Assembly (NCBI GenBank): GCA_039683615.1
Contig: JBDKRA010000029.1
Span: forward strand, 53,256-117,255
Direction of reading: 5' to 3'
Length of the DNA: 64,000 nucleotides
Source of the DNA: Phycisphaerae bacterium
GTDB lineage: Bacteria > Planctomycetota > Phycisphaerae > SM23-33
Shown: positions 27,839 through 51,612 of the stretch, in pieces
Numbering within the stretch: position 1 is the first letter of the stretch
Layout of the letters: every line of letters starts with the position of its first letter
The notes under the pieces: generated by a model
The model's database searches: none
Seen by the model: only the letters and a program-made list of their open reading frames with translations
Told to the model about the DNA's origin: nothing
Program-made: the position numbers and the translations under genes

Positions 27839-27850
27839 TCAAACAACTCA

Positions 27851-28008: not shown

Positions 28009-28020
28009 GTCAGTCTTTCT

Positions 28021-28803: not shown

Positions 28804-29054
28804 CCTGTCCCGAACATCGCTCGCGCGAACTCCACCAGCCGCGTCAGCATCCAGTGCCCCGCCAGCGAGGCCGTCACCGCCACGGCGATCAGCTTGGGCA
28901 CGAAGGTCAACGCCTGGTCCTGGATCTGCGTGGCCGCCTGCAGCAGGCTGACGATCAGTGCGATCACCAGCGCCGCCACGAGCATCGGCGCGCCAACGAC
29001 CAGCGTCACCTTCAGGGCCTCGCGGGCCAGATCCATTGCGTGTGCGGCGTCCAT
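28800..29054 (-). CDS. fliQ: Flagellar export apparatus protein FliQ
   Basis: 84-aa two-TM protein with LQAATQIQDQALTFVPKLIAV, matching the FliQ consensus. Start placed at MDAAHA. Confidence 0.8.
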   Translation of the reverse strand: MDAAHAMDLAREALKVTLVVGAPMLVAALVIALIVSLLQAATQIQDQALTFVPKLIAVAVTASLAGHWMLTRLVEFARAMFGTG

Positions 29055-29056
29055 CG

Positions 29057-30318: not shown

Positions 30319-30330
30319 GGCGACCCGCTT

Positions 30331-30407
30331 GAAACAAAAACGCGTGTCGCCATGCCACCCGACTGGGAGTTCAGGGACACGCACAACGGAGTTGTGCGTG
30401 GCACCCG
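30331..30407. repeat. Two adjacent repeat elements inside the flagellar operon (fliN-fliO spacer)
   Basis: 30331-30362 GAAACAAAAACGCGTGTCGCCATGCCACCCG is related to 27879-27948 and 35645-35672. 30372-30407 is near-identical to 1428-1464. Confidence 0.6.
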
Positions 30408-30458
30408 TCGCGCATGTCGCGGACGTCTCGCCCGCGTCTTGTTGTTTCCCTGCACGTT

Positions 30459-30686
30459 TCATGTCGTTCTCGCGCCGTCTATCCGCACGCCCAGGCGGTC
30501 CTGCACGCTCACCAGCGTGCCCACTGCCGTCGCTGCGCCGTCGCGGCTTATTTCGACCGCCCCGGCCGCAGGCGTATCGAGCGTGACGATCGAGCCGGGC
30601 GCCAACTCCCGCAGCGCCGCCGCGTTCAGCCACGCCCTGCCCAGGTCGATGCGTACGGCAGTCTGTGTTTCCTGTTGCGTCGTCAT
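30459..30686 (-). CDS. fliN: Flagellar motor switch protein FliN (SpoA domain)
   Basis: RIDLGRAWLNAAALRELAPGSIVTLD...VQDRLGVRI is the FliN/SpoA C-terminal domain. Confidence 0.75.
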   Translation of the reverse strand: MTTQQETQTAVRIDLGRAWLNAAALRELAPGSIVTLDTPAAGAVEISRDGAATAVGTLVSVQDRLGVRIDGARTT

Positions 30687-31135
30687 TGCACGCCCTCGCC
30701 TGCGGATCGCGCGGCGTACGCTTCGTCGGCAGCCGCGGCGGCCAACGCCGTCTCACGCAGGCACTGCTGCCGGCGGCGGCGGTCGGCCAGCGCCCGGGCC
30801 ACCCGCACCAGCAGCACCGCGTCGAGCAGGGCCTTGCGGCTGCGCACGAGCGATTGCTCGCCGTCGCGGGCCTGCTGCTTCAGACCGCCCATCGCGGCCC
30901 GAATGCCATCCACGCTCACGCGGTATCCGGCCGGAACGCCCTGGCCGGCTGGCGAGAGCAAACTGCGCCGTGCCGCCGCGTCGTGCTCATCGAGCGAGCC
31001 GTCCAGCGCCGCCAGCCGACTCCGCAGGGCTGTCAGGTCCTGGTACGTGCGCGCCAGGACCGCTGCAGCCTGGTCTTGCTGCCGGCGGCGAAACCGCACC
31101 AGCATGTCAGCGCATTGCGTGCGTCGGTCGGTCAT
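30683..31135 (-). CDS. fliJ: Flagellar export chaperone FliJ-like coiled-coil protein
   Basis: ~150-aa helical protein between fliI and fliN. Assigned by position and composition. Confidence 0.5.
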   Translation of the reverse strand: MTDRRTQCADMLVRFRRRQQDQAAAVLARTYQDLTALRSRLAALDGSLDEHDAAARRSLLSPAGQGVPAGYRVSVDGIRAAMGGLKQQARDGEQSLVRSRKALLDAVLLVRVARALADRRRRQQCLRETALAAAAADEAYAARSAGEGVQ

Positions 31136-32468
31136 GGAGGTACGTTCCTGTTTCTTGCGGTTCGTCGGCGACCGCAAGCTTTTGCAGTGACGCGATGGTC
31201 TGGTCGAAGTCGCACGGCTCGGCCACGTCCTGCGTCAAGAAGGCGTCGATGGCGTCGCGGGCGGCGATGGCTTCGTCATATTGCGGATTGGCCCCGGCCT
31301 GATAGACGCCCAGGTTGAGCAACTCTTCGACCTCGCGATAGAGCCCGACCAGTCGCCGCACGCGAGCGGCCGCCGCCTGATGTTCCGGCGCGGCGACCTC
31401 GTCCATCACGCGCGATACGCTGGTGACAATGTCGATGGCCGGCCAGTGCCCGCGGTTGGCCAGCGTGCGCGTCAGGTGGATGTGCCCGTCGGCCACCGCC
31501 CGCACGGCGTCGGCCAGCGGGTCGCCCGCGTCGCCTTCCTCGGCCAGCACCGTGTAGAAACCGGTGATCGATCCCGCCGCCGTGCGGCCGCAGCGCTCCA
31601 TCAACTGCGGCAGCAGGTTGAAGACGCTAGGTGTGTACCCTCGCACGGTCGCCGGCTCGCCCGCGGCCAGGCCGATCTGGCGCTGGGCCGACGCCAGGCG
31701 CGTCAGCGAGTCCATCACCAGCAGCACGTTGGCGCCGCGGTCGCGGAAGTATTCAGCCACAGCCGTAGCGACCGCGCCGGCCTGCACGCGCAGCAGCGGC
31801 GGCTCGTCGCTCGTCGAGGCTATCACGACGCAGTGCTTGAGGGCGTCACTGCCAAGTTCCTTGTCGACGAAGTCGCGTACCTCGCGGCCGCGCTCGCCGA
31901 TCAGCGCCACCACCGTCACGTCGGCGATGGCGCGGCGGGCGATCATGCCCAGCAGCACGCTCTTGCCCACGCCGCTGCCGGAGACAATGCCCATGCGCTG
32001 CCCCTGGCCGACGGTGAGCATCGCGTCGATGGCCCGCACGCCGGAGGGCAGCGGCGTGTCGATGCGCCGCCGCGACAGCGGGGCGATGGGCTGCGGCCAC
32101 AGGCTCTGCGGCATCGGCGCGGCCGGCGCCGGCAGGCCGTCGATGCAGCGCCCCAGGCCGTCGAGCACGCGCCCCAGCAGTCCTTCGCACACTCCGACGG
32201 TCTGCTCGGCGAAGGTGCAGTGCACCAGGTCGCCGCGGCGGATGCCCGTCATGGCCCCGGCCGGCATCACCAGCGTGCTGCGCCCGTCGAAGCCGATCAC
32301 GCGGGCGTCCAGCCCGCCGCCGGCGCACGCCAGGCGGCAGCCCGCCCCCAGCGGCACGGCGAAGTCGGCCACGCTGACCGTCAACCCGCGCACCGCCTCC
32401 ACGCGGCCGGTGATGTCCACCGGCTCGATGCGGTCCAGCGCCTCGGATTGTCGCTCAAATATCTGCAT
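31107..32468 (-). CDS. fliI: Flagellum-specific ATPase FliI
   Basis: Walker A GSGVGKS, Walker B LLVMDSLTR, FliI/T3SS-ATPase N-terminal beta-barrel. Confidence 0.92.
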   Translation of the reverse strand: MQIFERQSEALDRIEPVDITGRVEAVRGLTVSVADFAVPLGAGCRLACAGGGLDARVIGFDGRSTLVMPAGAMTGIRRGDLVHCTFAEQTVGVCEGLLGRVLDGLGRCIDGLPAPAAPMPQSLWPQPIAPLSRRRIDTPLPSGVRAIDAMLTVGQGQRMGIVSGSGVGKSVLLGMIARRAIADVTVVALIGERGREVRDFVDKELGSDALKHCVVIASTSDEPPLLRVQAGAVATAVAEYFRDRGANVLLVMDSLTRLASAQRQIGLAAGEPATVRGYTPSVFNLLPQLMERCGRTAAGSITGFYTVLAEEGDAGDPLADAVRAVADGHIHLTRTLANRGHWPAIDIVTSVSRVMDEVAAPEHQAAAARVRRLVGLYREVEELLNLGVYQAGANPQYDEAIAARDAIDAFLTQDVAEPCDFDQTIASLQKLAVADEPQETGTYLHDRPTHAMR

Positions 32469-33222
32469 GCACGCTCGTATCCGCGGCCGGGATGTACCGG
32501 CCGGTCGTATTTTGCTGTGGCTCGCTGGGCCGACCGAGCAGCGCCTGGGCGACCCGCCGCAGTTGCGTTTCGATGGTCGCGTCGACCGCCCCGCAGCGCG
32601 TCAGCACTCGCGCGCCGCCGGCGGCAATGCTGCTGTCGGCCTCGAACCGCACGCGGCCGGCGCGGGCGAGCTGCCGCCAGAGGCGCTGGCCTTCCTGCTC
32701 CAGCGCCGGAAGCTGCCCAGGATTGACGCACACGATGATCTCGTCGGCGTCGCTGGCCAGCTCCATCGCCCGGCGCAGGTTCACCAGCGCCGCGCGAGTG
32801 TCCACGGCCGCCACTTCGCCCACGATCCGCCGCGCCAGCTCGATGCCGAATCGCAGCAACTGCTCCTGGCGGTCCTGCTGGACCTGCCCGGCGGCCGCGG
32901 CCAGTTCGTCCACGATCTTGCCTGCCGCCTGCGCCAGGGCGGACATTCGCAACTGGCTCTTCTGGGCCGCCTGCCGCAGGCCGTGAGCGTAGCCTTCGGT
33001 CTGGCCGCGCTGGAATCCTTGCTCGTAGGCGCTGCGGTTGTAGTTGGTCTGGGCCGACTCGAGCTGCGCCTGTGCGGCGGCGACGATCTGCTGAGCCTGC
33101 AAGCGGGCCTGGTCGAGAATTTCTTTGCCCGCGGCCTCGAAGTCCGGCAGGGCCAACTCGGGCGCGCCGGCGTCGCCGCACGCGGCGGCTTGGATGATCC
33201 AGGCTGTCTTGGAGGCGTTCAT
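32455..33222 (-). CDS. fliH: Flagellar assembly protein FliH
   Basis: Coiled-coil N-terminal half and a FliH/YscL-like C-terminal domain. Start set at MNASK. The upstream in-frame extension is arginine-rich high-GC noise. Confidence 0.65.
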   Translation of the reverse strand: MNASKTAWIIQAAACGDAGAPELALPDFEAAGKEILDQARLQAQQIVAAAQAQLESAQTNYNRSAYEQGFQRGQTEGYAHGLRQAAQKSQLRMSALAQAAGKIVDELAAAAGQVQQDRQEQLLRFGIELARRIVGEVAAVDTRAALVNLRRAMELASDADEIIVCVNPGQLPALEQEGQRLWRQLARAGRVRFEADSSIAAGGARVLTRCGAVDATIETQLRRVAQALLGRPSEPQQNTTGRYIPAADTSVHADI

Positions 33223-35123
33223 GTGGCGGCGGCCTCCCGTGCTTCGTCGAGCGTGCTGCCGCAGCGGCGAACCATGCGGGCGACGTGGTCCTGGGCGGCT
33301 TCCACTTCGCTCAGCCGCACCGGCGGCAGCGTGTCCATCTGGCGGCGCAGGTCTCGCGTCGCGCGGCCGCCGATGCAGTGGAAGATTTTCGTGCGGATGG
33401 CCTGGCCCGCTGTGCGCATCGCCACGGCCAGCACCTGCGGATCGAGTGCGGCCAGTGCGGCGCGGAGTTCGTCGTCGTCGACAAGTTCGAGGTCTTCGAA
33501 CCCCAGCATGTCGCGGCGGATGTTGCGGGCCAGTTGCGGCTGACTCGAGGCCACCAGGTCCATCACGGTCCCGCCGGCGGCACCGCCGGCGTGCGTGAGG
33601 ATGTCGCGAATGACGGCCTCGCCCTGGCCCTGCGGAGTGTGGAGGGCGTTGAGGCGGTCGATGAGCGTATCCAGCACGTCCTGCACCGTTCGCTCGTCGA
33701 CCGTTAGCGGGTGCGCCAGGTGCATCACCACCTGCCGAGCGATCGGGGCATCGAGCGCGGCCAGCATCGCCGCCGACCGCCGCGGGTTCATCCGCGAAAG
33801 CACGATGGCGATCGTCTGCGTCTGCTCGGCCGCCAGCACCCACAGCAAATCGTCGTCGGCCAGGAGCTCCAGCCGGCGAATCTTGCTCTCCTCGGCCGTA
33901 ATCTCGCACGGCGGCTGCGCCACCTGCTCGGCCGCGGTGCGAGCCCTGGCACGACGGCGGCGACGCACGGCCGCGATGATGCAGAAGACCCCCGCCGCAA
34001 CCAGCACACCCGAGCCGGCGACAGCCCAGCCGCTACGGCCCTGCTGCGGCGGGCCCACAAATGCTGCCGCGAGGGCTTTGCCCGATAGCGCGTCGGTGTA
34101 GCAGTCGACGCTGACGGCCTTGGCGTCGGCCCCGATGATTCGCGCCGCGGCGGCGGCGATCCGTGCCGACTCATCGCGCGTGACTTGCTGAATGTCGAGA
34201 TTACGGCTGGCGGCGATGGCCTCGAAATAGCTCCGCGGCGCCAGCAGTGACGCGGCGGTGCAAGACTCGCCCTGCACCGCTGCGGTGACAGTCAGGCCCG
34301 GCACGTACGTCAGGGCCCCGGCGATGCGCTGCTGCCAGTAGTCGGCCACGCGGGCGCGGTTGGCCAGCCGGTCTTCCTGCGCCAGCGTCTCGTCGCCTGG
34401 CCGGTAGCTGCGCCCGCGCTGGTCGATCACGCACACGGCAGTGCGCTCCAGTCCGGCGTTGCTGCCGGCCAGCAGGTCGGCGATGGCGTTGACGAGTTGG
34501 GCGCTCATGCGCGCCTGGGCCCGCATGCGGAGGTTGACCGCAGCGGTGGCCGCGACTGCGGGCTGGCCGATCTTGCCGGCGCGGCCGCCCTCGAAGATGA
34601 CCTCGGCGTACTCGACGTCGGGGAACTGGCCGATCAGGCGCGAGAGCCGCTCGGCCTTGGCGGCCGCGGCGCGCTGTGAACGCTGCGATTCCGACAGCCA
34701 GATGTCTTCCTGAGACGAAGCCGCCTGCGCCGCGAGATCCTGCGGCGTCAGTGAGGCGTCGGTGAGGATCTTACGCGCCGCCGGCAGCGCGTCGGGCTGC
34801 ACGAGCAATCGCCCGCCGACGATCTGGCACTCGATGCCCCCGCCGGAGAGCATGGCGGCGGCGTTCTTGACGTGCTCGGCCGGCAGAGGCTGGTTAAAGA
34901 CGGCCTTGCGCTGCGGGGCAGCGTCGCTGGCCATCAGCCAGATGCCCCCCGCCACCGCCAGCACGGCCAGCGCAGCAAGGGCCGCCTGCCAGATGCGGCC
35001 GGTGACCGTCGCCTGGGCCTTGAGCCTCAGCCAAAGTTTGTACAGCACCTTCACCACGCGGTCCTCCGTGACCGCAAGTTGAGTGGCACGGCAAGAACGC
35101 GTGCCACCCGCTCGATCATCCAT
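33219..35123 (-). CDS. fliF-fliG: Fused FliF (MS-ring) and FliG (rotor/switch) protein
   Basis: N-terminal ~410 aa has TM1, an RBM1-like block (VFNQPLPAEHVKNAAAMLSGGGIECQIVG) and TM2. C-terminal ~215 aa has the FliG middle motif EQTQTIAIVLSRMNPRRSAAMLAALDAPIARQVVMHLA and the torque-helix region RLSEVEAAQDHVARMVRR. Single uninterrupted 634-codon ORF. Confidence 0.8.
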   Translation of the reverse strand: MDDRAGGTRSCRATQLAVTEDRVVKVLYKLWLRLKAQATVTGRIWQAALAALAVLAVAGGIWLMASDAAPQRKAVFNQPLPAEHVKNAAAMLSGGGIECQIVGGRLLVQPDALPAARKILTDASLTPQDLAAQAASSQEDIWLSESQRSQRAAAAKAERLSRLIGQFPDVEYAEVIFEGGRAGKIGQPAVAATAAVNLRMRAQARMSAQLVNAIADLLAGSNAGLERTAVCVIDQRGRSYRPGDETLAQEDRLANRARVADYWQQRIAGALTYVPGLTVTAAVQGESCTAASLLAPRSYFEAIAASRNLDIQQVTRDESARIAAAAARIIGADAKAVSVDCYTDALSGKALAAAFVGPPQQGRSGWAVAGSGVLVAAGVFCIIAAVRRRRRARARTAAEQVAQPPCEITAEESKIRRLELLADDDLLWVLAAEQTQTIAIVLSRMNPRRSAAMLAALDAPIARQVVMHLAHPLTVDERTVQDVLDTLIDRLNALHTPQGQGEAVIRDILTHAGGAAGGTVMDLVASSQPQLARNIRRDMLGFEDLELVDDDELRAALAALDPQVLAVAMRTAGQAIRTKIFHCIGGRATRDLRRQMDTLPPVRLSEVEAAQDHVARMVRRCGSTLDEAREAAAT

Positions 35124-35657: not shown

Positions 35658-35691
35658 CGTGTATCGCCATCCCGGCCGGTTCGCCGGTACA

Positions 35692-36819
35692 ATGTGGGCC
35701 ATGCGATTTATGGATTTGACCATCCTGGTTGCCATCGGCGTGGCCGCGATTCTTGGCGGGTGCAGGAAGGGGACATCCCCCACTTCGGCACCTGCCTCTG
35801 CGCCACTGCCGGCCAAGGCCGCTCAAGCCGGGCGGGAACAGAAAGACGGGCGAAAATCACCGGTGGCCGGATTGCAGCCCGGGGATCGGATCGTTTCGAT
35901 CGGAAGCCGAAGGGTCTCGGCCACTCGGCCGTCGCAGACTATGCAGGCCGTCGAGGCGGCGCGGGTTTCGGTAGCCGCGCAGGAATTTCTGCCGCCGCAA
36001 CGGCTGGCGGCATCGCGATCCGCGTCCGGTCCGCTGGACGCCGACCTTGTCGAGGGCGACGCCGCCTTGGCGGCAGGCAATCTGAGTGGGGCCGAGGCAG
36101 CGTTCCGGCGGCTGCTCGAACGCCGCCCCAAAGACTACGATGCCTTGTGCGGGCTGGCCACCACGCTGACGGCCGGCGGGCACAATCTGCCGGCCATGCT
36201 GGCCTATCAGCGCATCCTGGCGCTGCGGAAAGACGACCACACCGCGCGGTTCAACCTGGCGGTGGCGATGTCGCGGCTGGGGCGGTTCGACGAGGCCGAG
36301 CAGGAGTTCATCACCCTGCTCAAGCAGAACGCCGATGACGTGCGGGCCCGCTACAATCTGGCGATGGTGCTGGCCGCACATGGCAAGCTCGACGACGCCC
36401 GCTATCATCTTAAAGGCGTCGTGAGCCGCACCGACTCGCTGCCCTCAGCCTACGCCATTCTCGGCCAGGTGCTCATCGATCTGGGCGACGACGAAGGCGC
36501 GATGGAAGCCTACGGCAAGGCCGCCGCGCTCCAGGGCGACAACGTCGACAACTGGAAGAACTATGCCGCCGCCGCGCAGGCTGCCGGCAGCTACGGCCGG
36601 GCGATCTTGGCCGCGACGCGCGTGACGAAGCTCAACTCCTCCGACCCCGCCGCGTGGGCCTATCTGGGCGACTTGCACATGGCCGTGTACGAATCGACGC
36701 AGAAGGAGCACTTCCTGCGTCAGGCCCGCGAGGCCTGGATGCGGTCGCTGTCGCTTAATCCCGAACAGGAACCTCTTCGCGCCAAGCTGCGGGCCGCTCC
36801 GCGCCCGAAGGAGCCGTGA
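35692..36819 (+). CDS. TPR-repeat lipoprotein
   Basis: Lipobox LVAIGVAAILGGC. Multiple TPR motifs (AEAAFRRLLERRPKDYDALCGLA, ARFNLAVAMSRLGRFDEAEQEF, ARYNLAMVLAAHGKLDDA). The track ORF starts at GTG 35659; an internal ATG was chosen. Confidence 0.75.
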   Translation: MWAMRFMDLTILVAIGVAAILGGCRKGTSPTSAPASAPLPAKAAQAGREQKDGRKSPVAGLQPGDRIVSIGSRRVSATRPSQTMQAVEAARVSVAAQEFLPPQRLAASRSASGPLDADLVEGDAALAAGNLSGAEAAFRRLLERRPKDYDALCGLATTLTAGGHNLPAMLAYQRILALRKDDHTARFNLAVAMSRLGRFDEAEQEFITLLKQNADDVRARYNLAMVLAAHGKLDDARYHLKGVVSRTDSLPSAYAILGQVLIDLGDDEGAMEAYGKAAALQGDNVDNWKNYAAAAQAAGSYGRAILAATRVTKLNSSDPAAWAYLGDLHMAVYESTQKEHFLRQAREAWMRSLSLNPEQEPLRAKLRAAPRPKEP

Positions 36820-36823
36820 GATC

Positions 36824-37693
36824 ATGCTCGACCTGAAGACCTTCGCCAAAACCATCCGCGTCAGCGACGGCGCCTGGGGCACTGAACTGCAAACCGCCGG
36901 CCTTGTCGCCGGGGCTTCGCCGGAACTGCTCAACGTGGAGAATCCCGCCGCCGTGGCGGCCGTCGCCCGTTCCTACGTGCAGGCCGGCTCCGACGTCATC
37001 CTCACCAACACCTTCGGCGCCAACCGCTTCATCCTGGGCTCGCACCACCTTGCCGACCGCACGGCCGAACTCGCCCGCGCCGGGGCGGCCATCAGCCGCC
37101 GCGAGGCCGGCGACGCCGTCAAGGTCTTCGGCTCGATGGGACCCACCGGCAAGATCATGATGATGCAGGAGGCGCCCGAGGCCGAGATCGCAGCGGCTTT
37201 CGCGGAAGCGGCCGTCGCCCTGGCTGAAGGCGGCGTCGACGCGATCCTGCTGGAAAGCTTCGCGCAGCTCGACGAGATCTCGCTGGCACTTCGCGCGGTG
37301 CGTGAAGCAGTGGACCTGCCGGTAGTGGTCTCGATGACTTTCGCATCGGGTCCCGACGGCACGGCTACCATGATGGGCAACACCCCGGGCGACATGGCTG
37401 CCGTGGCGAAAGAGCACGGCGCCGCGGCTATCGGCGCCAACTGTGGCGCAGGCCCGGCGGGGTTCGTGAAAGTCGCCCGGCTCTTCCGAGCGGCCAGCGC
37501 CCTGCCGATCTGGATCAAGCCCAATGCCGGACTGCCCCAGCGCGGACCCGACGGCAAGACCTTCTTCCCCATGAGCCCCCAGGACTTCGCCGCCGCCGGC
37601 AAGTCGCTGATCGAAGCCGGCGCCAATTTCCTGGGCGGCTGCTGCGGCACCACGCCCAAACACATCGCCGCCGTGCGGCGAGTTGTGAGTTAG
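36824..37693 (+). CDS. Homocysteine S-methyltransferase (Hcy-binding domain) protein
   Basis: Pfam S-methyl_trans-like: DGAWGTELQ, ILTNTFGAN, zinc-ligand motif GGCCGTTP near the C-terminus. Confidence 0.8.
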   Translation: MLDLKTFAKTIRVSDGAWGTELQTAGLVAGASPELLNVENPAAVAAVARSYVQAGSDVILTNTFGANRFILGSHHLADRTAELARAGAAISRREAGDAVKVFGSMGPTGKIMMMQEAPEAEIAAAFAEAAVALAEGGVDAILLESFAQLDEISLALRAVREAVDLPVVVSMTFASGPDGTATMMGNTPGDMAAVAKEHGAAAIGANCGAGPAGFVKVARLFRAASALPIWIKPNAGLPQRGPDGKTFFPMSPQDFAAAGKSLIEAGANFLGGCCGTTPKHIAAVRRVVS

Positions 37694-37717: not shown

Positions 37718-38152
37718 ATGATGGAAATGAGCATCACAGAACGGAAAGCACTTGAACGAATTGAAAAGGGTAGCAGGCGAACTGTGTTTTACTGGGCCAT
37801 TGATGGCTTTATCCTTTTTGTTCTGCTTTCAGTGTGCGTAGGGGCCTGCGGGCTCATGCTGGCAGCGATCGAGACCTATCATTTCTCCTCGTGGAAGGAG
37901 TTGGTGACACTGAGTATGCCAACACAATTGCAGCAGTCGGAAAGTCTCAGTGCATCAACCCGCCATATTGGGGCGATGTTTGTCTTGTTCCACGGCTGCG
38001 TGGCGTTCTTTTCTCTGCTGTTGTCGCTTCAACAACTCAATAACATCCTCATCTTGATACGTCAGGTAAGTGCTCACAAGGTAGCCGCACGACTCATCGC
38101 CCATCTCAAGGAACTGGGCGAGATTCCGTCGGGTCTGCCCAAGACTCGATAG
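37718..38152 (+). CDS. Hypothetical small membrane protein (low-GC gene)
   Basis: Two hydrophobic helices. Gene GC is noticeably below the surroundings. No family recognised. Confidence 0.4.
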   Translation: MMEMSITERKALERIEKGSRRTVFYWAIDGFILFVLLSVCVGACGLMLAAIETYHFSSWKELVTLSMPTQLQQSESLSASTRHIGAMFVLFHGCVAFFSLLLSLQQLNNILILIRQVSAHKVAARLIAHLKELGEIPSGLPKTR

Positions 38153-38157
38153 CAAAC

Positions 38158-38694
38158 TCACTGCGCCGGTGCGTTCTTCTGCTTTGCCAGGCGGGTGTCG
38201 AGATCCTGACGCGAGGGCAGCACGATCAAGTCGCCGCCGACAGTCAGGGCCACGTATCGGCTGCTGATGGACACCGGGTCGTAAACCAGGATGTTGTCGT
38301 GCCGGGAGTCTGTCTGCTGCCCGGGAAGATATACCAGGGCGACTTCTCGATCGCTGACGCTGACGAGAATGTTCGCCGGCAGGTCGCGCAAGTCGGCGAG
38401 TTTGGGCGGAAAGAGGCCTCGGTGGTCGTGGGCGTAGCTGAGCATCTGTCCGTAGATGTTGCGCAGGTTCGTCTGGGCGGCCACCATCGGCAGGTCGGGG
38501 CCGACGATGTTGATCGGCAGACCGCCCGCACCCGATCGCGGGCGCGCCTCGACGGCGCTGTCGGGCCCGGCGGGCGTCGAATCCATGCGCCGCACGACCA
38601 GCCATATCGTCGCGCCCAAGGCGGCAAATATCGCGATGATCCCCACGATCTGAATCTTCTTGCCGCCGCCGGATGGAGTTGGTGTTGGAGCCAT
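38158..38694 (-). CDS. Hypothetical membrane-anchored protein
   Basis: N-terminal TM helix IVGIIAIFAALGATIWLVV. Weak, unverified resemblance of NLRNIYGQMLSYAHDHRGLFPP to the planctomycete DUF1559 H-X9-DG region. Start set at MAPTP to avoid overlapping the HAD gene. Confidence 0.45.
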   Translation of the reverse strand: MAPTPTPSGGGKKIQIVGIIAIFAALGATIWLVVRRMDSTPAGPDSAVEARPRSGAGGLPINIVGPDLPMVAAQTNLRNIYGQMLSYAHDHRGLFPPKLADLRDLPANILVSVSDREVALVYLPGQQTDSRHDNILVYDPVSISSRYVALTVGGDLIVLPSRQDLDTRLAKQKNAPAQ

Positions 38695-38728: not shown

Positions 38729-39379
38729 TCACAGCAGCTTGAGCAGATCCATCGGGTGGGCGAGCAGCGTTTGTGCGCCGGCGGCGGTGAGCTCCGCCCC
38801 CTGGCGGAAACCCCACAGCACGCCCACCGCGTACATGCCCGCAGCCACGGCCGTCTGCATGTCGGTGTTGGTGTCGCCGAGGTAGAGGATGCGATCGCAC
38901 GGCACATTGAGCCGCGCCGCGATGGCCACCGCCGCGGCCGGGTCGGGCTTGCGAGGCACGCCGTCCTGGGCGCCCTCGACCGCCGCAAAACGCCACGCCT
39001 TCAGCAGTTTGTGCACGCACTTGAGCGTGAAAGGGTGGGGCTTGTTGCTCAGGACCGACATTGGCAGCGCCCTGGCGGTCAACGCATCGAGCAGGTCGGC
39101 GATGCCCGGATACGGCCGCGTCCGATCGGCCCAGCACCGGGCGTAACGGTCGCGCTGCAGTTCGATGGTTCGTCGCACGAGTTCGTCGTCAGTGCCGCGC
39201 TGGCCCAGCGAACGGCGGGTGAACATCTCCAGCCCGTCGCCGACAAAGACCTTGTACGACTCCAGCGGATGCGTGGGCAGGGCCTGCGCCGCCAGGGCCG
39301 TGTTCATCGAATCGGCCAGGTCTTCCAGCGTATCCAGCAGCGTCCCATCGAGGTCGAAAATTACCGCGGAATATTCCAT
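38729..39379 (-). CDS. HAD-superfamily hydrolase (phosphoglycolate-phosphatase-like)
   Basis: Motif I VIFDLDGTLLD, motif II SVLSNK, motif IV GDTNTDMQTAVAAG. Only the C-terminal 216 codons of the 857-codon track ORF are coding. Confidence 0.85.
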   Translation of the reverse strand: MEYSAVIFDLDGTLLDTLEDLADSMNTALAAQALPTHPLESYKVFVGDGLEMFTRRSLGQRGTDDELVRRTIELQRDRYARCWADRTRPYPGIADLLDALTARALPMSVLSNKPHPFTLKCVHKLLKAWRFAAVEGAQDGVPRKPDPAAAVAIAARLNVPCDRILYLGDTNTDMQTAVAAGMYAVGVLWGFRQGAELTAAGAQTLLAHPMDLLKLL

Positions 39380-39436
39380 ACGGGCACATGATAGCGGAAC
39401 CACCGCAAGGATGAAGCCATTTTCCTTGACCGCAAG

Positions 39437-41566
39437 ATGAAAACCCCCGATAGAATGCTCTTTTGCCCAAAGGAGAGGACGTTGACCGCCACACAGACCA
39501 CACCGCAGACGCAGGACCCAGCGGAGAAACGCATCGAGGACGCCCGAACCATCGCCGACCATTTCGAGCAGTCCATCGCCATCACACCGCCGGAGATTCG
39601 CCCCGTCGGCGTCATTGCCGGCCCTCTGCACCGCAATACCGTGCCCAAAACCAACTGGGGCGGCGATAATCTGCACTACCCGATGGACGTCCGCACACTG
39701 ATGCGGTTGGGCGCGCCCGGCATCGCCGCTACCGCACGCACCAACGCCGCACGCCTCGCGCACGAGCAGGCCGACTACCTGCGCAACATCGCCCGCGCGT
39801 TCGACGCCGTCACGGCGTTCATCGCCGCGCACGCCAAGGCCGCCCAGGATCAAATGCCCGGCGCGACCACGGCCGAGCGCCGTCGCCTCAAGACCATCGC
39901 CGATAACTGCACCGCCCTGGCCGCCGGGCCGCCGCAGACCTTCGCCCAGGCCGTGCAGCTCTTCTGGTTCGTGCATTCGCTGCGCGGAATGGCCGACGTC
40001 TCCAGCACCATCGGCCGACTCGACCAGCACCTCGATCCGTTCTACAAAGCCGACATCGCCGCCGGCCGAATCACGCGCGACGAGGCCCTTGAGCTGACGT
40101 GCGAGTTGTGGCGGCTGCTGAACGTCGTGGTCTCGCACCCGGCGCAGGGGCTGATGAACCTGATGGTCGGCGGGCAGGACGCCGCCGGCAACGACGCCAC
40201 CAACGACATGTCGTACCTGCTGATCGACACGGCCATCGCCGTCAACGACACCAACCCGTTCCTCAGCGCCCGTATCCACGCCGGCAGCCCGGCAGCGTTT
40301 GTAGACAAAGTCGTCGAGCTGCAACTCGTCGGCCACGGGCAGGGCACGATATATAATGATGAGCTGATCATCCCCTCGCTGGTGCGTTACGGGGTGCCGA
40401 TCGAGTTGGCCCGCAACTACGCCAACGACGGCTGCAACGAGGTCACCATCGACGGGCAGTCGACCATCGACCTCAACCTCGTCGATTCGCTCAAGGCACT
40501 GGAGTACGTGATCTTCGACGGGGCCGACAACCCCTCCTGCCGCCAGCAGCCCAAGGCCACCTGCCGCAACTACGATACGCCCGGCCACCACACGGGCATG
40601 GCCGAGCCGGGCATCAAGACCGGCGACTTCGCCGCGATGACCAGCTTCGACCAGGTCTTCCAGGCCTTCTGCAAGCAGTTCTATCACCAGATCGACACGC
40701 GCCTGGAGCACTCCCGCCAGGGACGCATCTGGGCGGGCGACCACGCCGTCAGCGCCCCGGTGATGGCCGGGACGTTCGCCTCGGTGCTCGATAGCGGCCG
40801 GGACCCCTACCGCGGCGGCGTCGAGGTGCCGATCCTGTGCATGTTCCTGGGCTCGATGGGCACCGCCGGCGACGCCCTGGCGGCGATCAAGAAAGTCATC
40901 TTCGACGACAAGGCCGCCACGCCCGCCCAGCTTCGCGACGCCCTGGCCTCCGACTGGAAAGGCTTCGACGCGCTGCGCCGCCAGTGCCTCTCTGCACCCA
41001 AGTACGGCAACGATGACGACTACGTCGACAGCATTCTCGCAGCGGCCGTGCGCGGCGCCGTCGACCGCGTCAAAGCCGCCCCCGCAGCCCCTGGGCAGAC
41101 CGTTCTGCCGGCGCTGTTCAACCATGTGTTCCTCGCCACCGCCCAGAACTGCGGCGCCACGCCCGACGGGCGAAAGTGGATGGAACCGGTGGGCGAGCAT
41201 TTCTCGCCAGTCCCCGGCCGCGCCGTCAGCGGCCCCACCGCCGTCATCCGTTCGGCCACCAAGAGCCCGCTGGCCGACGCCGCCGGCGTGGCGATCTTCC
41301 ACGTGGGCCTCTCACGCGACATGGCCCCCAACAATGCCAGCGGCGCTGCCCTGGTTAAGAGCCTGCTCAAAGCCAGCCTCAAGATGGGCGCCACCGTGAT
41401 GAACACGGCGATCTACGACATCGAAACCCTCAAGGCCGCCAAGGCCCACCCCGAAAACTACGCCGACCTGATCGTGCGAGTGTGGGGCTACTCCGCAAGA
41501 TTCGTGGGCCTGTCCGCAGAAATGCAGGACCATATCATCGCCCGCGCGGTCAGGGACAAAAACTGA
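39437..41566 (+). CDS. Glycyl radical enzyme, pyruvate formate-lyase-like family
   Basis: KYGNDDDYVD block, Cys-loop-like NDGCNEV, C-terminal glycine-radical motif LIVRVWGYSARFVGLS (the canonical motif is RVSGY). Confidence 0.8.
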   Translation: MKTPDRMLFCPKERTLTATQTTPQTQDPAEKRIEDARTIADHFEQSIAITPPEIRPVGVIAGPLHRNTVPKTNWGGDNLHYPMDVRTLMRLGAPGIAATARTNAARLAHEQADYLRNIARAFDAVTAFIAAHAKAAQDQMPGATTAERRRLKTIADNCTALAAGPPQTFAQAVQLFWFVHSLRGMADVSSTIGRLDQHLDPFYKADIAAGRITRDEALELTCELWRLLNVVVSHPAQGLMNLMVGGQDAAGNDATNDMSYLLIDTAIAVNDTNPFLSARIHAGSPAAFVDKVVELQLVGHGQGTIYNDELIIPSLVRYGVPIELARNYANDGCNEVTIDGQSTIDLNLVDSLKALEYVIFDGADNPSCRQQPKATCRNYDTPGHHTGMAEPGIKTGDFAAMTSFDQVFQAFCKQFYHQIDTRLEHSRQGRIWAGDHAVSAPVMAGTFASVLDSGRDPYRGGVEVPILCMFLGSMGTAGDALAAIKKVIFDDKAATPAQLRDALASDWKGFDALRRQCLSAPKYGNDDDYVDSILAAAVRGAVDRVKAAPAAPGQTVLPALFNHVFLATAQNCGATPDGRKWMEPVGEHFSPVPGRAVSGPTAVIRSATKSPLADAAGVAIFHVGLSRDMAPNNASGAALVKSLLKASLKMGATVMNTAIYDIETLKAAKAHPENYADLIVRVWGYSARFVGLSAEMQDHIIARAVRDKN

Positions 41567-41601
41567 CCACAGAGACACGGAGGGGGATGAGGTAAAAACA
41601 G

Positions 41602-41714
41602 AGACTTTGCCACAAAGAGCACAAAGACCACGAAGAAGAAGACGAAGAGATTTGGTCCCCGTCACTCTCTGTGTTCTTTGTGACCTTTGTGGCAAAGCTT
41701 CTTCTTTCTTTTTG
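41602..41714. repeat. Long imperfect inverted repeat (CTTTGCCACAAAG...CACAAAG family) between the GRE gene and the next gene
   Basis: Left arm CTTTGCCACAAAGAGCACAAAGACCACGAAGAAGAAG and right arm CTCTGTGTTCTTTGTGACCTTTGTGGCAAAGCTTCTTC are reverse complements with a few mismatches. Confidence 0.5.
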
Positions 41715-41724
41715 CGAGAGCAAA

Positions 41725-43367
41725 CGATGAACATGCGAAATGGTCTGGTGGCATTGTCGGTGATCGTTCTTCTGGCCGCTTGCGGCTTCGCGGATGTGCC
41801 CAAGGTCCCCCCGCCGGTCGGGGCGCCGCTGGCGGCGAAGTGGGAGTATAGTCGCGACGGCGGCAAGACGTTCTCCCCTGAGGCGCCGGCGGTGACGGTC
41901 ACCAGCGGACCCGACGCCAAGAACGCCCTCGTCGCGCGGGCGACGTTCAGCATCGACGACATGGCGAAGATCGGCGCCGTAAAGATCGTGACGGCGTCTG
42001 GCACCGGGGCCTTCGCCCTGACCGACGCCGACAGCGTCCAGCGGCGGTACGTCGGGGCGTACCCCACGCTCGTCAACGCCAGGCTGGCCGTCAACGGCAA
42101 GGAGACCGACGCCGGGCATTTCCCCTCGCGTCTATACAACTATCTCACCATCGACCCGGACCTGCTGCACAAGGGCGCCAATACGCTGACAGTCGCCGCC
42201 GTGCTGTGGGCGCCGCCGACTGTTAAGACCGACGCTCCGGCCGGGCTGAGCCTGGAGACGCTCGGGACGGACATGGTCTCGCTCGACCGCGGGCCGACGC
42301 TGGGGGCCATCGGCGAGGACTACTTCACCTTCACCGCCCGCGCCGTCACGGCCTGCGATTTCAGCGTGAGCGTCAAGCCCATCGAGCCGGCCGGCGCGGA
42401 GACGCAGCAGGCCTTGCCCAAGGCGCGGCTGCTGCGGGCGAAGGTAGCGCTTGCCAAAGGAACGAAGAAGTTCGCCTACACGCTGACGGCCAAGTCGGCC
42501 GGCGGGGCGACCAAGGCGTACGGGCCTTACGAAGTGGTCGTGCCGGTCTTCGGCGAGGGGTTCAAGTTCGTCGCCGCGGCCAACACCTACATCTACGGGC
42601 ACCATCCCGAGGAGCTCAAGGCGTTCTTCGCCAAGCTGCCCTCGTCGGGCGGGCAGATCTTCGTGCATGGGGGCGTGATGCAGAACGTGGCCACCCACGA
42701 CCAGATGTGGACGAACGACTTCTTCTACTACAGCCGCGAGGCCCTGGCCCGCATGCCGATGTACGCTGTGCCGGGCTACCCCGACACGTACTCGATGGAA
42801 GCCTGGGGCAGCGAGTTCTACTTCCCCACCCCCGACGGGACATGGAATTACTGGACGCAGGCTTTCGGCAAGGTGCGGCTGATCGGGATCGAGGCGATGT
42901 CGATGATGGAGGACAAAGGCGCGGGCAAGGCCTGGCTCGAGGACGTGCTCAAGAACGCCAAGGAAGATTACGTCATCGTCTTCAACTCGCAGGCGCCAAA
43001 CTGCTCGGGCCAGAACGCCAAGTACTACTCAAAGCCGGCGGTGGAGTACATCGCCAAGGAGATCAGCCCGCTGCTGGTGAAGTACAAGGTGACGGCCACC
43101 ATCGGCAGCTACCACTACAGCTACCAGCGCAACGAGCCGCCGGCCGACGAGAGCGTCACGACGATCATGACCAGCAAGGCCGGCGGGCTGGGCTGGCCGC
43201 TGCGCACGGATTTCGTGGCCGCCAACAAAGAATCGAAAGTCGCCGTCGGATACAAGAACCACTACTGCCTCTTCGAAGTGACCAAAGACGCCCTGCAGAT
43301 GCAGGCGATAGCGTACGAGACCGGAGAGGTCATCGACAAGGTGACGTTCAAACCGCGGGCCAAGTAA
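41725..43367 (+). CDS. Hypothetical secreted lipoprotein
   Basis: Signal/lipobox LVALSVIVLLAACGF. ~545 aa. No confident family. Start placed at MNMRNG. Confidence 0.6.
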
Positions 43368-43369
43368 TT

Positions 43370-43547
43370 AGCCGCTGAGGTCGCTGAGGACGCTGAGGGG
43401 GAGGGATGGAATAGTGGAATAACGGAATAATGGACTTGGTCCTTTGACCGGTATTCCACCATTCCATCATTCCCTTGTTCGTTCTTCCTCAGCGTCCTCA
43501 GCGACCTCAGCGGCTAATTTAACCCCCAGAAATTGGTCGCAAAAACG
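43370..43547. repeat. MITE-like element with perfect 31-bp terminal inverted repeats
   Basis: TTAGCCGCTGAGGTCGCTGAGGACGCTGAGG (43370-43400) is the exact reverse complement of 43487-43517. The interior is also palindromic (GGAATAGTGGAATAACGGAATAATGG / CCACCATTCCATCATTCC). Partial second copy at 35612-35657. Overlaps the stop codon of the upstream gene. Confidence 0.6.
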
Positions 43548-45368
43548 TTACTTCGTCCTTCGATTTCCAAACCTCGAACTTCCCCGCCGCCCTTCGAACT
43601 TCACGCCTTCTCTCTTCTTGCTCTGCGATCTCTGCGTTCTCCGCGGTGAATCCTCCCCCGCCGGGGCGAGCAGGTAGTGCATCCGCAGGCGCTCGGCGTC
43701 GGTGCGGGCGACGGGGATGGCGTGGCCTTGCGGGTCGATTCCGGCGTAGAACATCGCCGCCGCGACCGTGCCCGGCAGCGGGATGAAGCACTGCACCTGC
43801 TGGGGCTTCCAGCCGCGCTGCTTGAGCCAGGCCGCGAGCTGCCGCATGTCGGCCTCGGTGCATCCGGGAAACGCGCTGATCAGATACGGCACGACGAACT
43901 GCTCCTTGCCCGCGCGCTGGCAGAGCCGCTCGAAGAGTTCGAGGAACTTCTCGAACGCCTCGGCGGGCGGCTTGCGCATCAGGCGCAGGACGCGGTCGGC
44001 GATGTGCTCGGGTGCGATCTTGAGCTGGCCGCCGACGAACTGGCCGATCAGCGTCTCGAGATACGCGCTGGAGCGCATCGCCAGGTCGTACCGCACGCCG
44101 CTGGCGACGCGGACGTTTTTGACGCCGCTGGTGGTCCGCACTTTCTCAAGCAGGGCCGCATTGGCGCCCTGGGCGTCGACGAAGTTGCGGCAGATCGCCG
44201 GCGTCAGGCAGCTCGCCCGCGTGCAGGTGGACGCGTCGCCGCTGCAGCGGGCGCCCCACATGTTGGCCGTGGGCCCGCCGACGTCGCTGATCGAGCCACG
44301 CCACTGCGCGTGGCGCGTCATCGCCTGGGCCTCGGCTTCAATCGAGCCGGCGCTGCGAGACGCGATGCGCCGCCCCTGGTGCGCCGCCAACCCGCAGAAC
44401 GAGCATCCGCCCGCGCAGCCGCGGTGGCTGGTGATGCTGAAGCGGATCATGTCGGCGGCCGGCACCGCCTCGCGGTACGACGGGTGCGGCTCGCGCGTGA
44501 ACGGCATGGCGTAGATCGCGTCGAGCTCCTCGCCCGTCACCGGCGACGGCGGCGTGAGGATGAGGCTGCGGCCCTCGACGCTCTGCACCGCCCACGCGCC
44601 CTGGTGCACCTGGCGCTCCTGGGATAGCGTGGCTTCCATCAAGGCCGCGGGATCGGCCAGCATCTCCTCGTGCGAGGGCAGGCGGATGACCGCCGCCCCT
44701 TCCGGGATGTCGCTCTCGTTGCCGATGAACGCCGCGCCGCCAATGGCCGCAAACGCACGGCTGCGCGCGGCGCGGTCGACGTCGCCGGCGAGCGTTTCAA
44801 ACGCCGCCGCGGCCGCCAGGATCGACCGCTCGGCCATCCCGTACAGCAGCAGGTCGGCCTTGGCGTCGAGCAGGATCGCCCGGCGGAGCTTGTCGGTCCA
44901 GAAGTCGTAATGCGTGATGCGCCGCAGCGAGGCCTCAATGCCCCCCAGCACGATCGGCAGGCCGGGCATGGCCTGTTTGACCAGCCCCGCGTAGACCAGC
45001 GCCGCGCGGTTGGGCCGCCGCCCCGCCGCCCCGCCGGGCGTGTACGCGTCGTCGCTGCGCTTCTTGCGAAACGCCGTGTAGTGCGCCAGCATCGAATCCA
45101 GCGCCCCGGCCGTCACGCCGGCGAACAGCCGCGGCCGCCCCATCGCGACGATGTCGTCAGGCCGGTCCCACCGCGGCTGCGCGACGATGCCCATGCGGTA
45201 CCCGTGCGTCGCCAGCCACCGCCCCAGCACGGCCACGCCGAAGGACGGATGGTCCACGTACGCGTCGCCGCTGACAAGCAGGACATCGAGCTCGCGCCAG
45301 CCCAGGCGGTCCATCTCGGCCCGCGTCATCGGCAGCACGCCGCTGTAGGATTTACTGTGCTCACTCAT
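43548..45368 (-). CDS. YgiQ-family (UPF0313) radical SAM protein
   Basis: N-terminal YgiQ-type domain ([17 protein letters not shown]), radical SAM cluster motif CAGGCSFC, C-terminal extension. Confidence 0.8.
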
Positions 45369-47948: not shown

Positions 47949-48365
47949 TCACCCCTTTTTGGGAAGGCGGATGGTCAAGAAGCCCAGGCGATAACCGGCG
48001 GATATTTCCGCGGTGTTCACGTCGGGAGGCAGTTTCAGCGCCCGCTGGAAGTGCCCCTGGTCGATCTCCATCAGGTGCATGCGGAGACGCTTGTCCTTGC
48101 TGGGCGGGTTGGGCATGTCGCGCTCGCCCGAAAGCACCAGGCGGTCGGACTCGACGCTCAGGTCGATCGCCGCGATGTCCACGCCCGCCAGGTCCACCAG
48201 CACGAAATAGGCCACCGAATCCTCGTACAGGTTGACCGATGGCGCCCAGCTGCGATCGACGGCATACTTGTGAAACGTGGTCGTCAGAACATTGTCCACC
48301 CAGGAGTAGAGATCCTGATTGCGACGTGCCATCTTTCCTGCCGCATCGATATGTATCGTCGACAT
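47949..48365 (-). CDS. Hsp20/alpha-crystallin family small heat-shock protein
   Basis: Alpha-crystallin domain (VNLYEDSVAYFVLVDLAGVD...LSGERD...GFLTIRLPK). 3 nt upstream of lon. Confidence 0.8.
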   Translation of the reverse strand: MSTIHIDAAGKMARRNQDLYSWVDNVLTTTFHKYAVDRSWAPSVNLYEDSVAYFVLVDLAGVDIAAIDLSVESDRLVLSGERDMPNPPSKDKRLRMHLMEIDQGHFQRALKLPPDVNTAEISAGYRLGFLTIRLPKKG

Positions 48366-48543
48366 GCCGTTGTCCTTTCGCTGCCTGCGGTATGGGCATG
48401 GCCATTTCTGCCGCTCAATTTCCTGGCCCACATCCTGGAAGCTGCTGCAAATCTGTAGGTATTATACCCTCTCTTGTGCGTCGTTGCCCGCCCCTGATTC
48501 ACATAATGGCGAAACAGCGCCCACAGGGCGGGGTTTCATGTAG

Positions 48544-50140: not shown

Positions 50141-50198
50141 GTTGTGAGTTGTGAGTTGTGAGTTGTGGATTCTTTCTCACCACGCACAACTCACAACT
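50141..50198. terminator. Strong bidirectional terminator hairpin (GTTGTGAGTTGTG repeats) between convergent genes
   Basis: (GTTGTGA)x3-GTTGTGG / CCACGCACAACTCACAACT stem of ~20 bp with an 11-nt loop. The right arm overlaps the stop codon of the M81 peptidase gene. Confidence 0.55.
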
Positions 50199-51612
50199 GA
50201 AGCGCAGCGTCTTCATCCAGCGGCCAGATCGGGCGCTTCAGGTGCTTGAAGGGCAGGCGGTCGAGGCGCAGGTCGGTGTAGCCGGGGCTCAGGGCCATCA
50301 GGCCCAGCGGGGCGTTGTCGCGGACGTCCGGCCAGAGGTAGCCCTGCTTGACGACGGCGATCTTCTTCTTGAAGACGTCCACGCCCATCTTCTCGAAATA
50401 CCAGACCATGACGAACGGCCAGCGGTCCGACTGCAGCACGACCTCGACGCCGCCGGTGGCCACCAGCGCCCGCGGACCGCCGGCGCCACTGTCGGTCACC
50501 AGGCGAATGATCTTCACGCGCGCGGCCAAAGGCTTGCAGAATGTGGAGTCGAGCTTGCCGCCGATGCTCAGGTCGATCTCGGTGCCTTCGCCGGCAGCGA
50601 AGCAGGCCTGCACCGCCGCAGGGTCGGTGATCCCGCCCACGATGGCGTCTTTGACCCCCAGGGCAATCAGGCGCTGAAGGATGATGGTGCTGTCGCCGCC
50701 GCCGCCGGCCGTCGGATTGTCGCCGCTGTCCGAGATGAACACCGGCGCCTCCGGCGCCGCCAGCGCAGCCGCGATCGTCGCGTCCGCTTCGGCCACCGGC
50801 ATGTCCGGACCGAACTCCTCCCGCCGCGACCAGATCTCCCTCGCCAGCGCCCGGGCCTGGCGTTTCACTGCCGCGGCGTCAGTGCCGCTGACGAGCACGC
50901 TCACGCCGGTGTGCGGGCTATCGGTCCAGGCGCAGCCGATGAGAATCGACGAGGTCAGAATCCCCGGCACGGCGTCGATTTCTTCCAGCCGCGCGTAGAG
51001 CGACTTGGCCGGCTCGACTTCCGTCACCGCCCACTCGCCCGTCAGCAACAGCGGCAGCTTGATCAGTTCCGTCACCGGCCGCACGTTCTGCTCCAGACAC
51101 TGCATCATCAGCTTCAATGCGCGCTGGGAGGTTTCGGCGCAATCGCGATGCGGGGCCGTGCGGTAGGCGGTCAGGAAGTCGCAGGCATGGACGAACTGCG
51201 GCGAGAGGTTGCCGTGCAGGTCCAGCGTGCCGCAGATGAAGACCCTATCGCCGGTGACAGCCCGGATGCGGCGCAGCAACTCGCCTTCGCCGTCGCCGAT
51301 CTCCTCCACTTCCATCGCCCCGTGCAGCCCCATGAACAGCGCGTCCAGCGGCATCGCCGCCGCGATCATCTCCACCATCTCGCCGGCAATGCGGTCGAAG
51401 GCGTCTTTGGTGATGCGCCCCGCCGGACCGGCCGAGGCGTATATCAGCCCCGCCACCTCGTGCCCGGCGGCCGCAAGCTCCTGCCAAAAACCGTCTTTGA
51501 CCAGGCCGCTGCCGCGTGCGATGCCGAAGTCTTCATACCGCGTGGGCATCGTCGAGAAGGTGTTGGTCTCATGCGACCAGCCGGCCGTGGCTATTCGCAT
51601 AACGATCTCCAT
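50191..51612 (-). CDS. M81-family metallopeptidase (MlrC-like, DUF1485/DUF1205)
   Basis: MRIATAGWSHETNTF N-terminus typical of MlrC-like proteins. ~470 aa. Confidence 0.65.
   Translation of the reverse strand: MEIVMRIATAGWSHETNTFSTMPTRYEDFGIARGSGLVKDGFWQELAAAGHEVAGLIYASAGPAGRITKDAFDRIAGEMVEMIAAAMPLDALFMGLHGAMEVEEIGDGEGELLRRIRAVTGDRVFICGTLDLHGNLSPQFVHACDFLTAYRTAPHRDCAETSQRALKLMMQCLEQNVRPVTELIKLPLLLTGEWAVTEVEPAKSLYARLEEIDAVPGILTSSILIGCAWTDSPHTGVSVLVSGTDAAAVKRQARALAREIWSRREEFGPDMPVAEADATIAAALAAPEAPVFISDSGDNPTAGGGGDSTIILQRLIALGVKDAIVGGITDPAAVQACFAAGEGTEIDLSIGGKLDSTFCKPLAARVKIIRLVTDSGAGGPRALVATGGVEVVLQSDRWPFVMVWYFEKMGVDVFKKKIAVVKQGYLWPDVRDNAPLGLMALSPGYTDLRLDRLPFKHLKRPIWPLDEDAALQL

Follow-up and report, generated by a model that had tools for sequence, protein, structure and literature searches.

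A 64,000-nucleotide stretch of DNA from a Phycisphaerae bacterium (contig JBDKRA010000029.1, G+C ∼65%; the whole of this stretch is referred to as the window) carries a gene for a putative glycyl radical enzyme (GRE), the radical-site motif of which reads RVWGY. An activase gene next to the GRE gene is typical of GREs, though not obligatory, and none adjoins this one; two genes downstream lies a gene for a radical S-adenosylmethionine (SAM) protein of the YgiQ family. The question raised by the locus is whether the protein is a working radical enzyme and, if so, which enzyme activates it. In this study, genes in the window were called by length and third-position GC and annotated using Pfam and NCBIfam, and the GRE was compared with its relatives in protein collections and genomes. 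The reading favoured here, at a probability of roughly 0.8, is that the window encodes a functional GRE of an uncharacterised clade, that its canonical activase, a protein labelled P0241, is encoded at an unlinked site and that YgiQ is unrelated to it.

The enzyme and the RVWG clade

The features of the enzyme on which the argument depends are listed below; residue numbers follow a frame of 709 residues.

39437/39482-41566, + strand: GRE, with Pfam PFL-like and Gly_radical domains
40430-40444, + strand: Cys loop G332-C333-N334-E335-V336 (GCNEV), a CxE motif, read from the translation
41000-41029, + strand: KYGNDDDYVD block, residues 522-531, read from the translation; it aligns with the same block of CutC
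41477-41491, + strand: glycyl radical motif R681-V682-W683-G684-Y685 (RVWGY), read from the translation

A first-pass annotation, made by a model from the letters of the sequence, had described a 709-residue enzyme resembling pyruvate formate-lyase (PFL) with the motifs GCNEV, KYGNDDDYVD and RVWGY. Translation confirms all three motifs, and the longest open reading frame (ORF), from ATG 39437 to 41566 on the + strand, does encode 709 residues; however, the start is probably TTG 39482, which gives 694 residues, because a Shine–Dalgarno sequence (AAGGAG) precedes it and both the N-termini of relatives (MTATQT) and the NCBI annotation of P0001 agree with it. P0001, recorded as 'MAG: hypothetical protein LLG01_08110 [Planctomycetaceae bacterium]' (MAG, metagenome-assembled genome), is 100% identical to the window GRE.

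The protein matches the Pfam families PFL-like (PF02901, 321.5 bits) and Gly_radical (PF01228, 57.7 bits). The accepted GRE fingerprint, RVxG[FWY]x6-8[FL]x4Qx2[IV]x2R (PMC13450708; PMC11528403), is satisfied in full, as RVWGY-SARFVG-L-SAEM-Q-DH-I-IA-R. G684 is presumed to be the radical site; C333, which aligns with the Cys of the GCVE loop of CutC, is presumed to be the thiyl-radical site and E335 the general base. In an alignment of 53 homologues from several phyla (33-87% identity), R681, V682, G684, C333 and E335 are invariant, as are K522, G524, N525 and D531, and W683 is at least 90% conserved, its exceptions being three 823-residue proteins with RVRGF. A model predicted with AlphaFold2 (AF2), with a predicted local distance difference test (pLDDT) score of 93 and a predicted TM-score (pTM) of 0.92, has the 10-stranded β/α barrel of the GRE fold and places the Gly loop at the tip of a β-hairpin. 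Since the domains, the fingerprint, the Cys loop, the predicted fold and an activase in the genome were all found, the window protein is, as judged from sequence and model, a member of the GRE superfamily (PFL-like division, IPR004184).

The tryptophan before the radical glycine is shared by a whole group of proteins. In a search of 5.8 billion proteins, the hit list of which was chosen without regard to the motif, ∼57 homologues form a sharply separate group (33-100% identity, median length 691 residues), after which the matches are canonical GREs of ∼800 residues with no more than 32% identity. The Gly loops of 57 group members comprise 52 with RVWG[FY], three with RVRGF and two that are truncated and lack the motif, that is, 52/55 among full-length members, whereas Trp precedes the Gly in 0/63 of the next-best canonical GREs, which mostly read RVAGY. 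The Cys loop also differs, being C[T/N/S]E in the group and mostly CVE in the same 63 GREs. In an exhaustive hidden Markov model (HMM) search of 1.84 billion representatives at 50% identity, the 22 best matches comprised 17 with RVWG[FY], one with RVRGF, one with RVFGY and three that were truncated. Unbiased counts of the motif are confined to these two tallies.

By these counts, RVWG[FY] is a family trait of a distinct, uncharacterised clade of ∼690-residue GREs. Its members lack ∼100 N-terminal residues in comparison with canonical PFL2-type GREs and occur in Planctomycetota, Lentisphaerota, Latescibacterota, Clostridia, Spirochaetes and Desulfobacterota, including the cultured carriers Clostridium sp. 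KNHs205 and Anthropogastromicrobium aceti. The first-pass annotation started from the premise that RVSGY is present in nearly all GREs. This is inaccurate, as the published fingerprint reads RVxG[FWY] (PMC13450708; PMC11528403), and overstated because eliminase-type GREs mostly have RVAGY. The Trp is unusual in comparison with characterised GREs, yet its conservation indicates that it is not an error, and it lies within what the family signature allows. No paper that combines an RVWG Gly loop with the term 'glycyl radical' was found in the searchable literature.

As a separate observation, distant uncharacterised GRE representatives (P0262-P0389) have A, S, T, G, W, H, R, V or F immediately ahead of the radical Gly, a range much wider than the textbook motifs would lead one to expect; many of these representatives have a CWE Cys loop.

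The activase and the YgiQ neighbour

The first-pass annotation had reported no activase gene within 10 kb on either side of the GRE. This holds and extends to the whole window, 39 kb on the upstream side of the GRE and 22 kb on the downstream side, in which no GRE activase-like sequence is found anywhere. Among credible ORFs of the window, CxxxCxxC occurs only in YgiQ, and a tblastn search of the window with the activase of the same genome gave nothing better than E = 0.05. A hidden or frameshifted activase, or a missed N-terminus of the GRE, at 37.7-39.4 kb was considered and rejected; the region holds a HAD hydrolase and two small ORFs, and the tblastn search was negative.

An activase is present on another contig. 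P0241, a 321-residue protein annotated as a glycyl-radical enzyme activating protein (MCE5327339.1, MEN6662798.1), shares both of its accession series with the GRE (MCE5326368.1, MEN6664493.1), and direct look-up showed that GCA_021371965.1 holds both, the GRE on JAJFVE010000094.1 and P0241 on JAJFVE010000134.1. It was located via the accessions of cluster members; the LLG01 locus tag was found in none of 120 matches to the activase of locus L017. P0241 scores 340 bits against TIGR02494 (cutoff 174); it carries CxxxCxxC in its N-terminal part and, in addition, two Cys clusters of the ferredoxin-like kind. Among the activases of the loci compared, those of L017 (61%) and L070 (57%) match it best, the L070 activase directly abutting an RVWGF GRE and the L017 activase lying 2.9 kb from such a GRE. 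In a sister species, the GRE of which (P0003) is 77% identical, the pair is equally split, with the activases P0242 and P0239 in the same gene context. The suggestion of the first-pass annotation that the activase lies elsewhere is thus supported, and we infer that P0241 is the cognate activase of the GRE.

P0241 ends a co-directional trio consisting of a 237-residue HAD hydrolase, a 326-residue protein with a match to GH20 domain 2 only (GH20b) and the activase. This trio is conserved in both Planctomycetaceae species (L084 8194-10966; L083 8200-10987), in the sister species among housekeeping genes. The HAD gene beside the GRE and that beside the activase were considered as remnants of a split operon; this idea was rejected because the two proteins are only 25% identical and hence not orthologous remnants.

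The separation of the two genes was compared with the arrangement in related loci, using a genome scan with one genome per GTDB species, a clade alignment and jackhmmer over the ORFs of 84 loci. A canonical activase lies within 350 bp of the GRE in 47/63 RVWG loci outside the subclade of the window GRE, and within 10 kb in nine more; the RVWG clade therefore uses ordinary activases. The subclade itself, as defined by a neighbour-joining tree, comprises Planctomycetota, Victivallales, Latescibacterota, Sumerlaeia and unclassified environmental bacteria. In 14/15 of its loci no activase is found in the available flanks, which extend to at least 4 kb on both sides in 8/14, and in the exception it is 2.9 kb away. 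A GRE unlinked from its activating enzyme (AE) is the rule in this Planctomycetota/Victivallales/Latescibacterota subclade. No conserved neighbours of the GRE beyond those shared by the sister species were found in this subclade of the Planctomycetes–Verrucomicrobia–Chlamydiae (PVC) and Fibrobacteres–Chlorobi–Bacteroidetes (FCB) groups, some high-GC loci of which were mis-called by the greedy ORF picker.

Several points weigh against the favoured reading. One of the three scan patterns, DL[IVM]VRVWG[FY], contained RVWG, so that loci with the motif are over-represented in the set; GRE activity across the clade is predicted from conserved residues; and the neighbours of the window GRE give no clue to its substrate. 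The statement that the GRE and P0241 share a genome rests on binning, because the genome is a metagenome bin, with the qualification that the pair is reproduced in two assemblies and in the sister species. P0241 might also serve a different GRE of the MAG. P0241 shares 40-47% identity with most RVWG-linked activases and 47% with the activase of an RVAGY GRE (L065), so that its identity to most of the former is no higher than to the latter, and AE specificity depends on the sequence of the Gly loop (PMC13450708). The alternative to which these last points lead, in which P0241 belongs to another GRE and the window enzyme is activated by a different AE or through cross-reaction, is nevertheless considered improbable: the two locus activases most similar to P0241 come from related phyla and either adjoin an RVWG GRE or lie 2.9 kb from one, the combination of one RVWG GRE and one orthologous AE recurs in the sister species, and no other GRE of the MAG appeared among the GRE homologues found.

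A decayed or non-radical relic, in which the bulky Trp blocks activation and the lack of a nearby activase is thereby explained, would be in keeping with the absence of Trp at this position from all characterised GREs, with an N-terminus ∼100 residues shorter than in canonical GREs and with a gene standing apart from obvious pathway genes. However, G684, C333 and E335 do not vary from one phylum to another, RVWG GREs routinely have an AE next to them, the AF2 model is confident and the gene is free of frameshifts. Moreover, in the aminoacyl radical enzymes (AAREs), Ala, Ser or Thr replaces the radical Gly and the enzymes are still activated (PMC11528403). Like the AAREs, the RVWG clade departs from the canonical Gly loop and is known mostly from MAGs, but in the clade the radical Gly is invariant and the variation affects the preceding 'x' position, where the fingerprint allows it. 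Decay is accordingly regarded as very unlikely.

The remaining candidate for activation within the window is YgiQ. The genes and elements between it and the GRE are as follows.

41595-41707: imperfect palindrome in the GRE–lipoprotein spacer, with 42-nt arms (41595-41636 and 41666-41707) that are 79% complementary
41724-43367, + strand: predicted lipoprotein of 547 residues, with a lipoprotein signal and lipobox LAAC
43368-43518: near-perfect hairpin of ∼150 nt between the convergent lipoprotein and ygiQ genes (fold -109.4 kcal/mol, z = -15)
43548-45368, - strand: YgiQ-family radical SAM protein, 606 residues, TIGR03904

The first-pass annotation was right that a 606-residue YgiQ protein is encoded two genes downstream on the opposite strand, and that a secreted lipoprotein and two palindromes lie between the two genes; its proposal that the pairing is functionally meaningful is unsupported. 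The idea that YgiQ is the activase of the GRE, or a maturase that it requires in place of the missing PFL-AE-type enzyme, draws on the lack of any other radical SAM gene in the window, on the distance of two genes that separates YgiQ from the GRE, on the retention of the order GRE–lipoprotein–YgiQ in the sister locus L001 and on the lack of a known function for YgiQ, the family still being uncharacterised in the searchable literature. Against this, YgiQ is adjacent in only two of ∼80 RVWG-GRE loci, the window and L001, the GRE of which is 77% identical, and was not found within 10 kb of any other RVWG locus; as these two are sister species, they represent one evolutionary event. The gene is co-directional with lon and hsp20 and convergent to the GRE side, from which the strong hairpin sets it off. 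The protein scores 716.8 bits against TIGR03904 (cutoff 462.35) and 368 bits against Radical_SAM_N (PF08497), and its CxxxCxxC (∼44417) stands near residue 318, after an N-terminal domain of ∼300 residues, which is a different architecture. It is thus an orthodox member of the YgiQ/UPF0313 family (717 bits) for which no tie to a GRE was found across RVWG loci. In Escherichia coli, YgiQ is present alongside dedicated GRE activases. The adjacency looks like shallow local synteny with no partnership and, with a canonical AE next door to the GRE in most members of the clade and P0241 in the genome of the window GRE itself, such a partnership is unneeded; a role for YgiQ in activation is scarcely credible. 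A misread RVSGY or RVAGY, whether from sequencing or from assembly, has only the scarcity of RVWGY among textbook GREs in its favour; the first-pass annotation had listed a sequencing error behind the Ser-to-Trp change as grounds for rejecting its observation. Such an error can be set aside, since the same Trp recurs in several phyla, in dozens of independent metagenomes and in isolates including the two cultured carriers, and the identical protein occurs in two assemblies.

Placement, proposed chemistry and substrate

The nearest solved proteins by sequence are CutC (263 bits), HypD (240), glycerol dehydratase (GD, 226), propanediol dehydratase (PD, 224) and YbiW (221). Foldseek comparison of the model with the same five proteins gave query TM-scores (TMq) of ∼0.78-0.81 at 26-30% identity, with no clear favourite. 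Scores against NCBIfam equivalogs, with the cutoffs in second place, were 319/678 for TIGR01774 (PFL2-3, which covers GD and PD), 281/1100 for HypD, 279/1050 for CutC, 279/1000 for HpsG, 273/1000 for HpfG, 211/1109 for PRK09983 and 67/994 for TIGR01255, most of the scores falling three- to fourfold short. Because none of these cutoffs was reached, the protein is placed outside every characterised GRE family.

The CxE motif is common to all GRE 1,2-eliminases, in which the Glu is hydrogen-bonded to the substrate hydroxyl, according to a 2026 review (PMC13450708). Both residues of this motif are present and invariant in the window GRE (C333-N-E335), and the conserved residues, together with the predicted fold, suggest eliminase- or isomerase-type chemistry. 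In such a reaction, the radical SAM activase would remove a hydrogen from G684 to leave a stable glycyl radical, which would pass to C333 to form a thiyl radical. The latter would abstract a hydrogen from a substrate C—H group adjoining a hydroxyl, and E335 would deprotonate or hydrogen-bond this hydroxyl, leading to cleavage of a C—O (or C—X) bond or to rearrangement. The abstracted hydrogen would then be given back to the product.

Comparison with known systems gives likenesses of several kinds. CutC, GD, PD and HypD are the best matches in sequence and structure and share the CxE Cys loop, the KYGNDD block, the Gly-loop fingerprint and an activase of the ferredoxin-domain type. The window GRE differs from them in being only 26-30% identical, in having W for A before the radical Gly and C[T/N/S]E in place of CVE, and in lacking ∼100 N-terminal residues; in addition, no bacterial-microcompartment genes occur among the recurrent neighbour families of its relatives. 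YbiW and PflD are GRE sugar isomerases that act on carbohydrate derivatives (1,5-anhydroglucitol-6-P and 1,5-anhydromannitol-6-P) in pathways with kinases and aldolases (PMC13450708). Relatives of the window GRE likewise stand beside DeoC-type aldolases and FGGY and PfkB kinases, and YbiW matches at 221 bits and a TMq of 0.78; however, these isomerases are no closer than the eliminases, the corresponding PRK09983 score being 211 bits where 1109 are required, and they have another residue in the Gly loop and another length. With the founder of the superfamily, PFL (PflB/TdcE), the fold and the radical relay are shared. PFL has a Cys-Cys pair and reads RVSGY, whereas the window protein reads RVWGY, has a single Cys in GCNE and scores 67 bits where TIGR01255 requires 994.

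Evidence on the substrate comes from the gene context of relatives. In gut and rumen Firmicutes, two operon types recur: type A, with GntR, a DeoC/LacD aldolase, an FGGY kinase, an iron-containing alcohol dehydrogenase, the GRE and the AE (L015, L053, L054, L058), and type B, with LacI, ABC permeases, a solute-binding protein, the GRE, the AE, DUF2961 and a PfkB kinase (L028, L031, L039, L042, L076), L031 being the locus of Clostridium sp. KNHs205. Further RVWG loci carry GH32, GFO/IDH/MocA oxidoreductases, enolase-superfamily genes or SIS genes. Because the operons of relatives carry sugar-catabolic genes, analogy points to a carbohydrate-derived substrate, and different RVWG subclades probably have different substrates. 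No relevant literature was found for GREs combined with DeoC, polyols or PVC phyla.

A distant branch of RVWGF GREs (22-28% identity; L066, L072-L081) was observed, with its activase, inside polysaccharide-biosynthesis loci that contain a Polysacc_synt flippase and UDP-galactopyranose mutase. No characterised GRE in the list given by the 2026 review has a biosynthetic role of this type.

A more far-reaching reading joins these elements. The RVWG clade would be a new functional class of GRE that converts a carbohydrate-derived substrate by an as yet undescribed radical reaction, such as the dehydration or isomerisation of a polyol or anhydro-sugar feeding DeoC-type aldolases; its distant branch would act in polysaccharide biosynthesis; the invariant Trp would contribute to the mechanism, for instance by adjusting the stability of the radical, its sensitivity to oxygen or its recognition by the activase; and the activase would be unlinked in PVC/FCB bacteria. 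Taken as a whole, this reading is speculative and rather doubtful.

Surrounding genes and implications

The other genes around the GRE are as follows.

24952-35123, - strand: flagellar export genes
35659-36819, + strand: TPR protein
36824-37693, + strand: homocysteine S-methyltransferase
37718-38152, + strand: small ORF without a family match
38158-38694, - strand: small ORF without a family match
38729-39379, - strand: HAD-family phosphatase (phosphoglycolate-phosphatase-like), divergent from the GRE; Pfam HAD_2, 99.7 bits
45483-47945, - strand: Lon (Pfam)
47949-48431, - strand: Hsp20 (Pfam)
50191-51612 and beyond, mixed strands: MlrC-type peptidase, PQQ/malectin protein, glutamine synthetase III and others

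The HAD phosphatase scores 136.6 bits against NCBIfam PGP_bact, under the cutoff of 180, and in the sister locus L001 the place upstream of the GRE is not taken by this gene. A spurious 857-residue antisense ORF (38729-41302, - strand), which occurs in this high-GC DNA, overlaps most of the GRE gene, and naive picking of the longest ORF therefore hides both the HAD gene and the GRE. In the flagellar export cluster, a 634-residue ORF (33219-35123, - strand) with a YscJ/FliF domain and FliG N, M and C domains is an apparent FliF–FliG fusion.

The 547-residue lipoprotein has the signal MNMRNGLVALSVIVLLAAC and gave no Pfam, NCBIfam or PDB match; a homologue lies downstream of the GRE only in L001 (12250-13893) and is absent from the other RVWG loci. 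The spacer between the GRE and lipoprotein genes (41567-41723) is 91% identical to L001 12086-12252, compared with 77% for the GRE proteins, and folds into a long imperfect hairpin, which suggests a conserved non-coding element with a possible regulatory or terminator role. The hairpin at 43368-43518 is made of short repeats of the GCTGAGG and GGAAT type, is unique in the window and has no counterpart at the equivalent place in L001; it is probably a bidirectional terminator or a repeat element. Searches of both palindromes against Rfam gave only sub-threshold, miRNA-like matches.

Of the earlier interpretation of the locus, the placement of the activase elsewhere survives, and the YgiQ pairing and the RVSGY premise do not. 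With the motif a trait of the clade, the activase unlinked and YgiQ a bystander, no new activation mechanism is needed, and in PVC-type genomes a missing adjacent activase is no evidence against a working GRE. The latest review of GREs notes that whole clades of the superfamily remain unvalidated, and the RVWG clade is a case in point. The value of the locus lies in a phylogenetically broad GRE clade that matches no characterised GRE and bears a diagnostic RVWG/C[TNS]E signature; its type A and type B operons are good leads toward the substrate, and the cultured carriers, Clostridium sp. KNHs205 and A. aceti, make the clade experimentally tractable.

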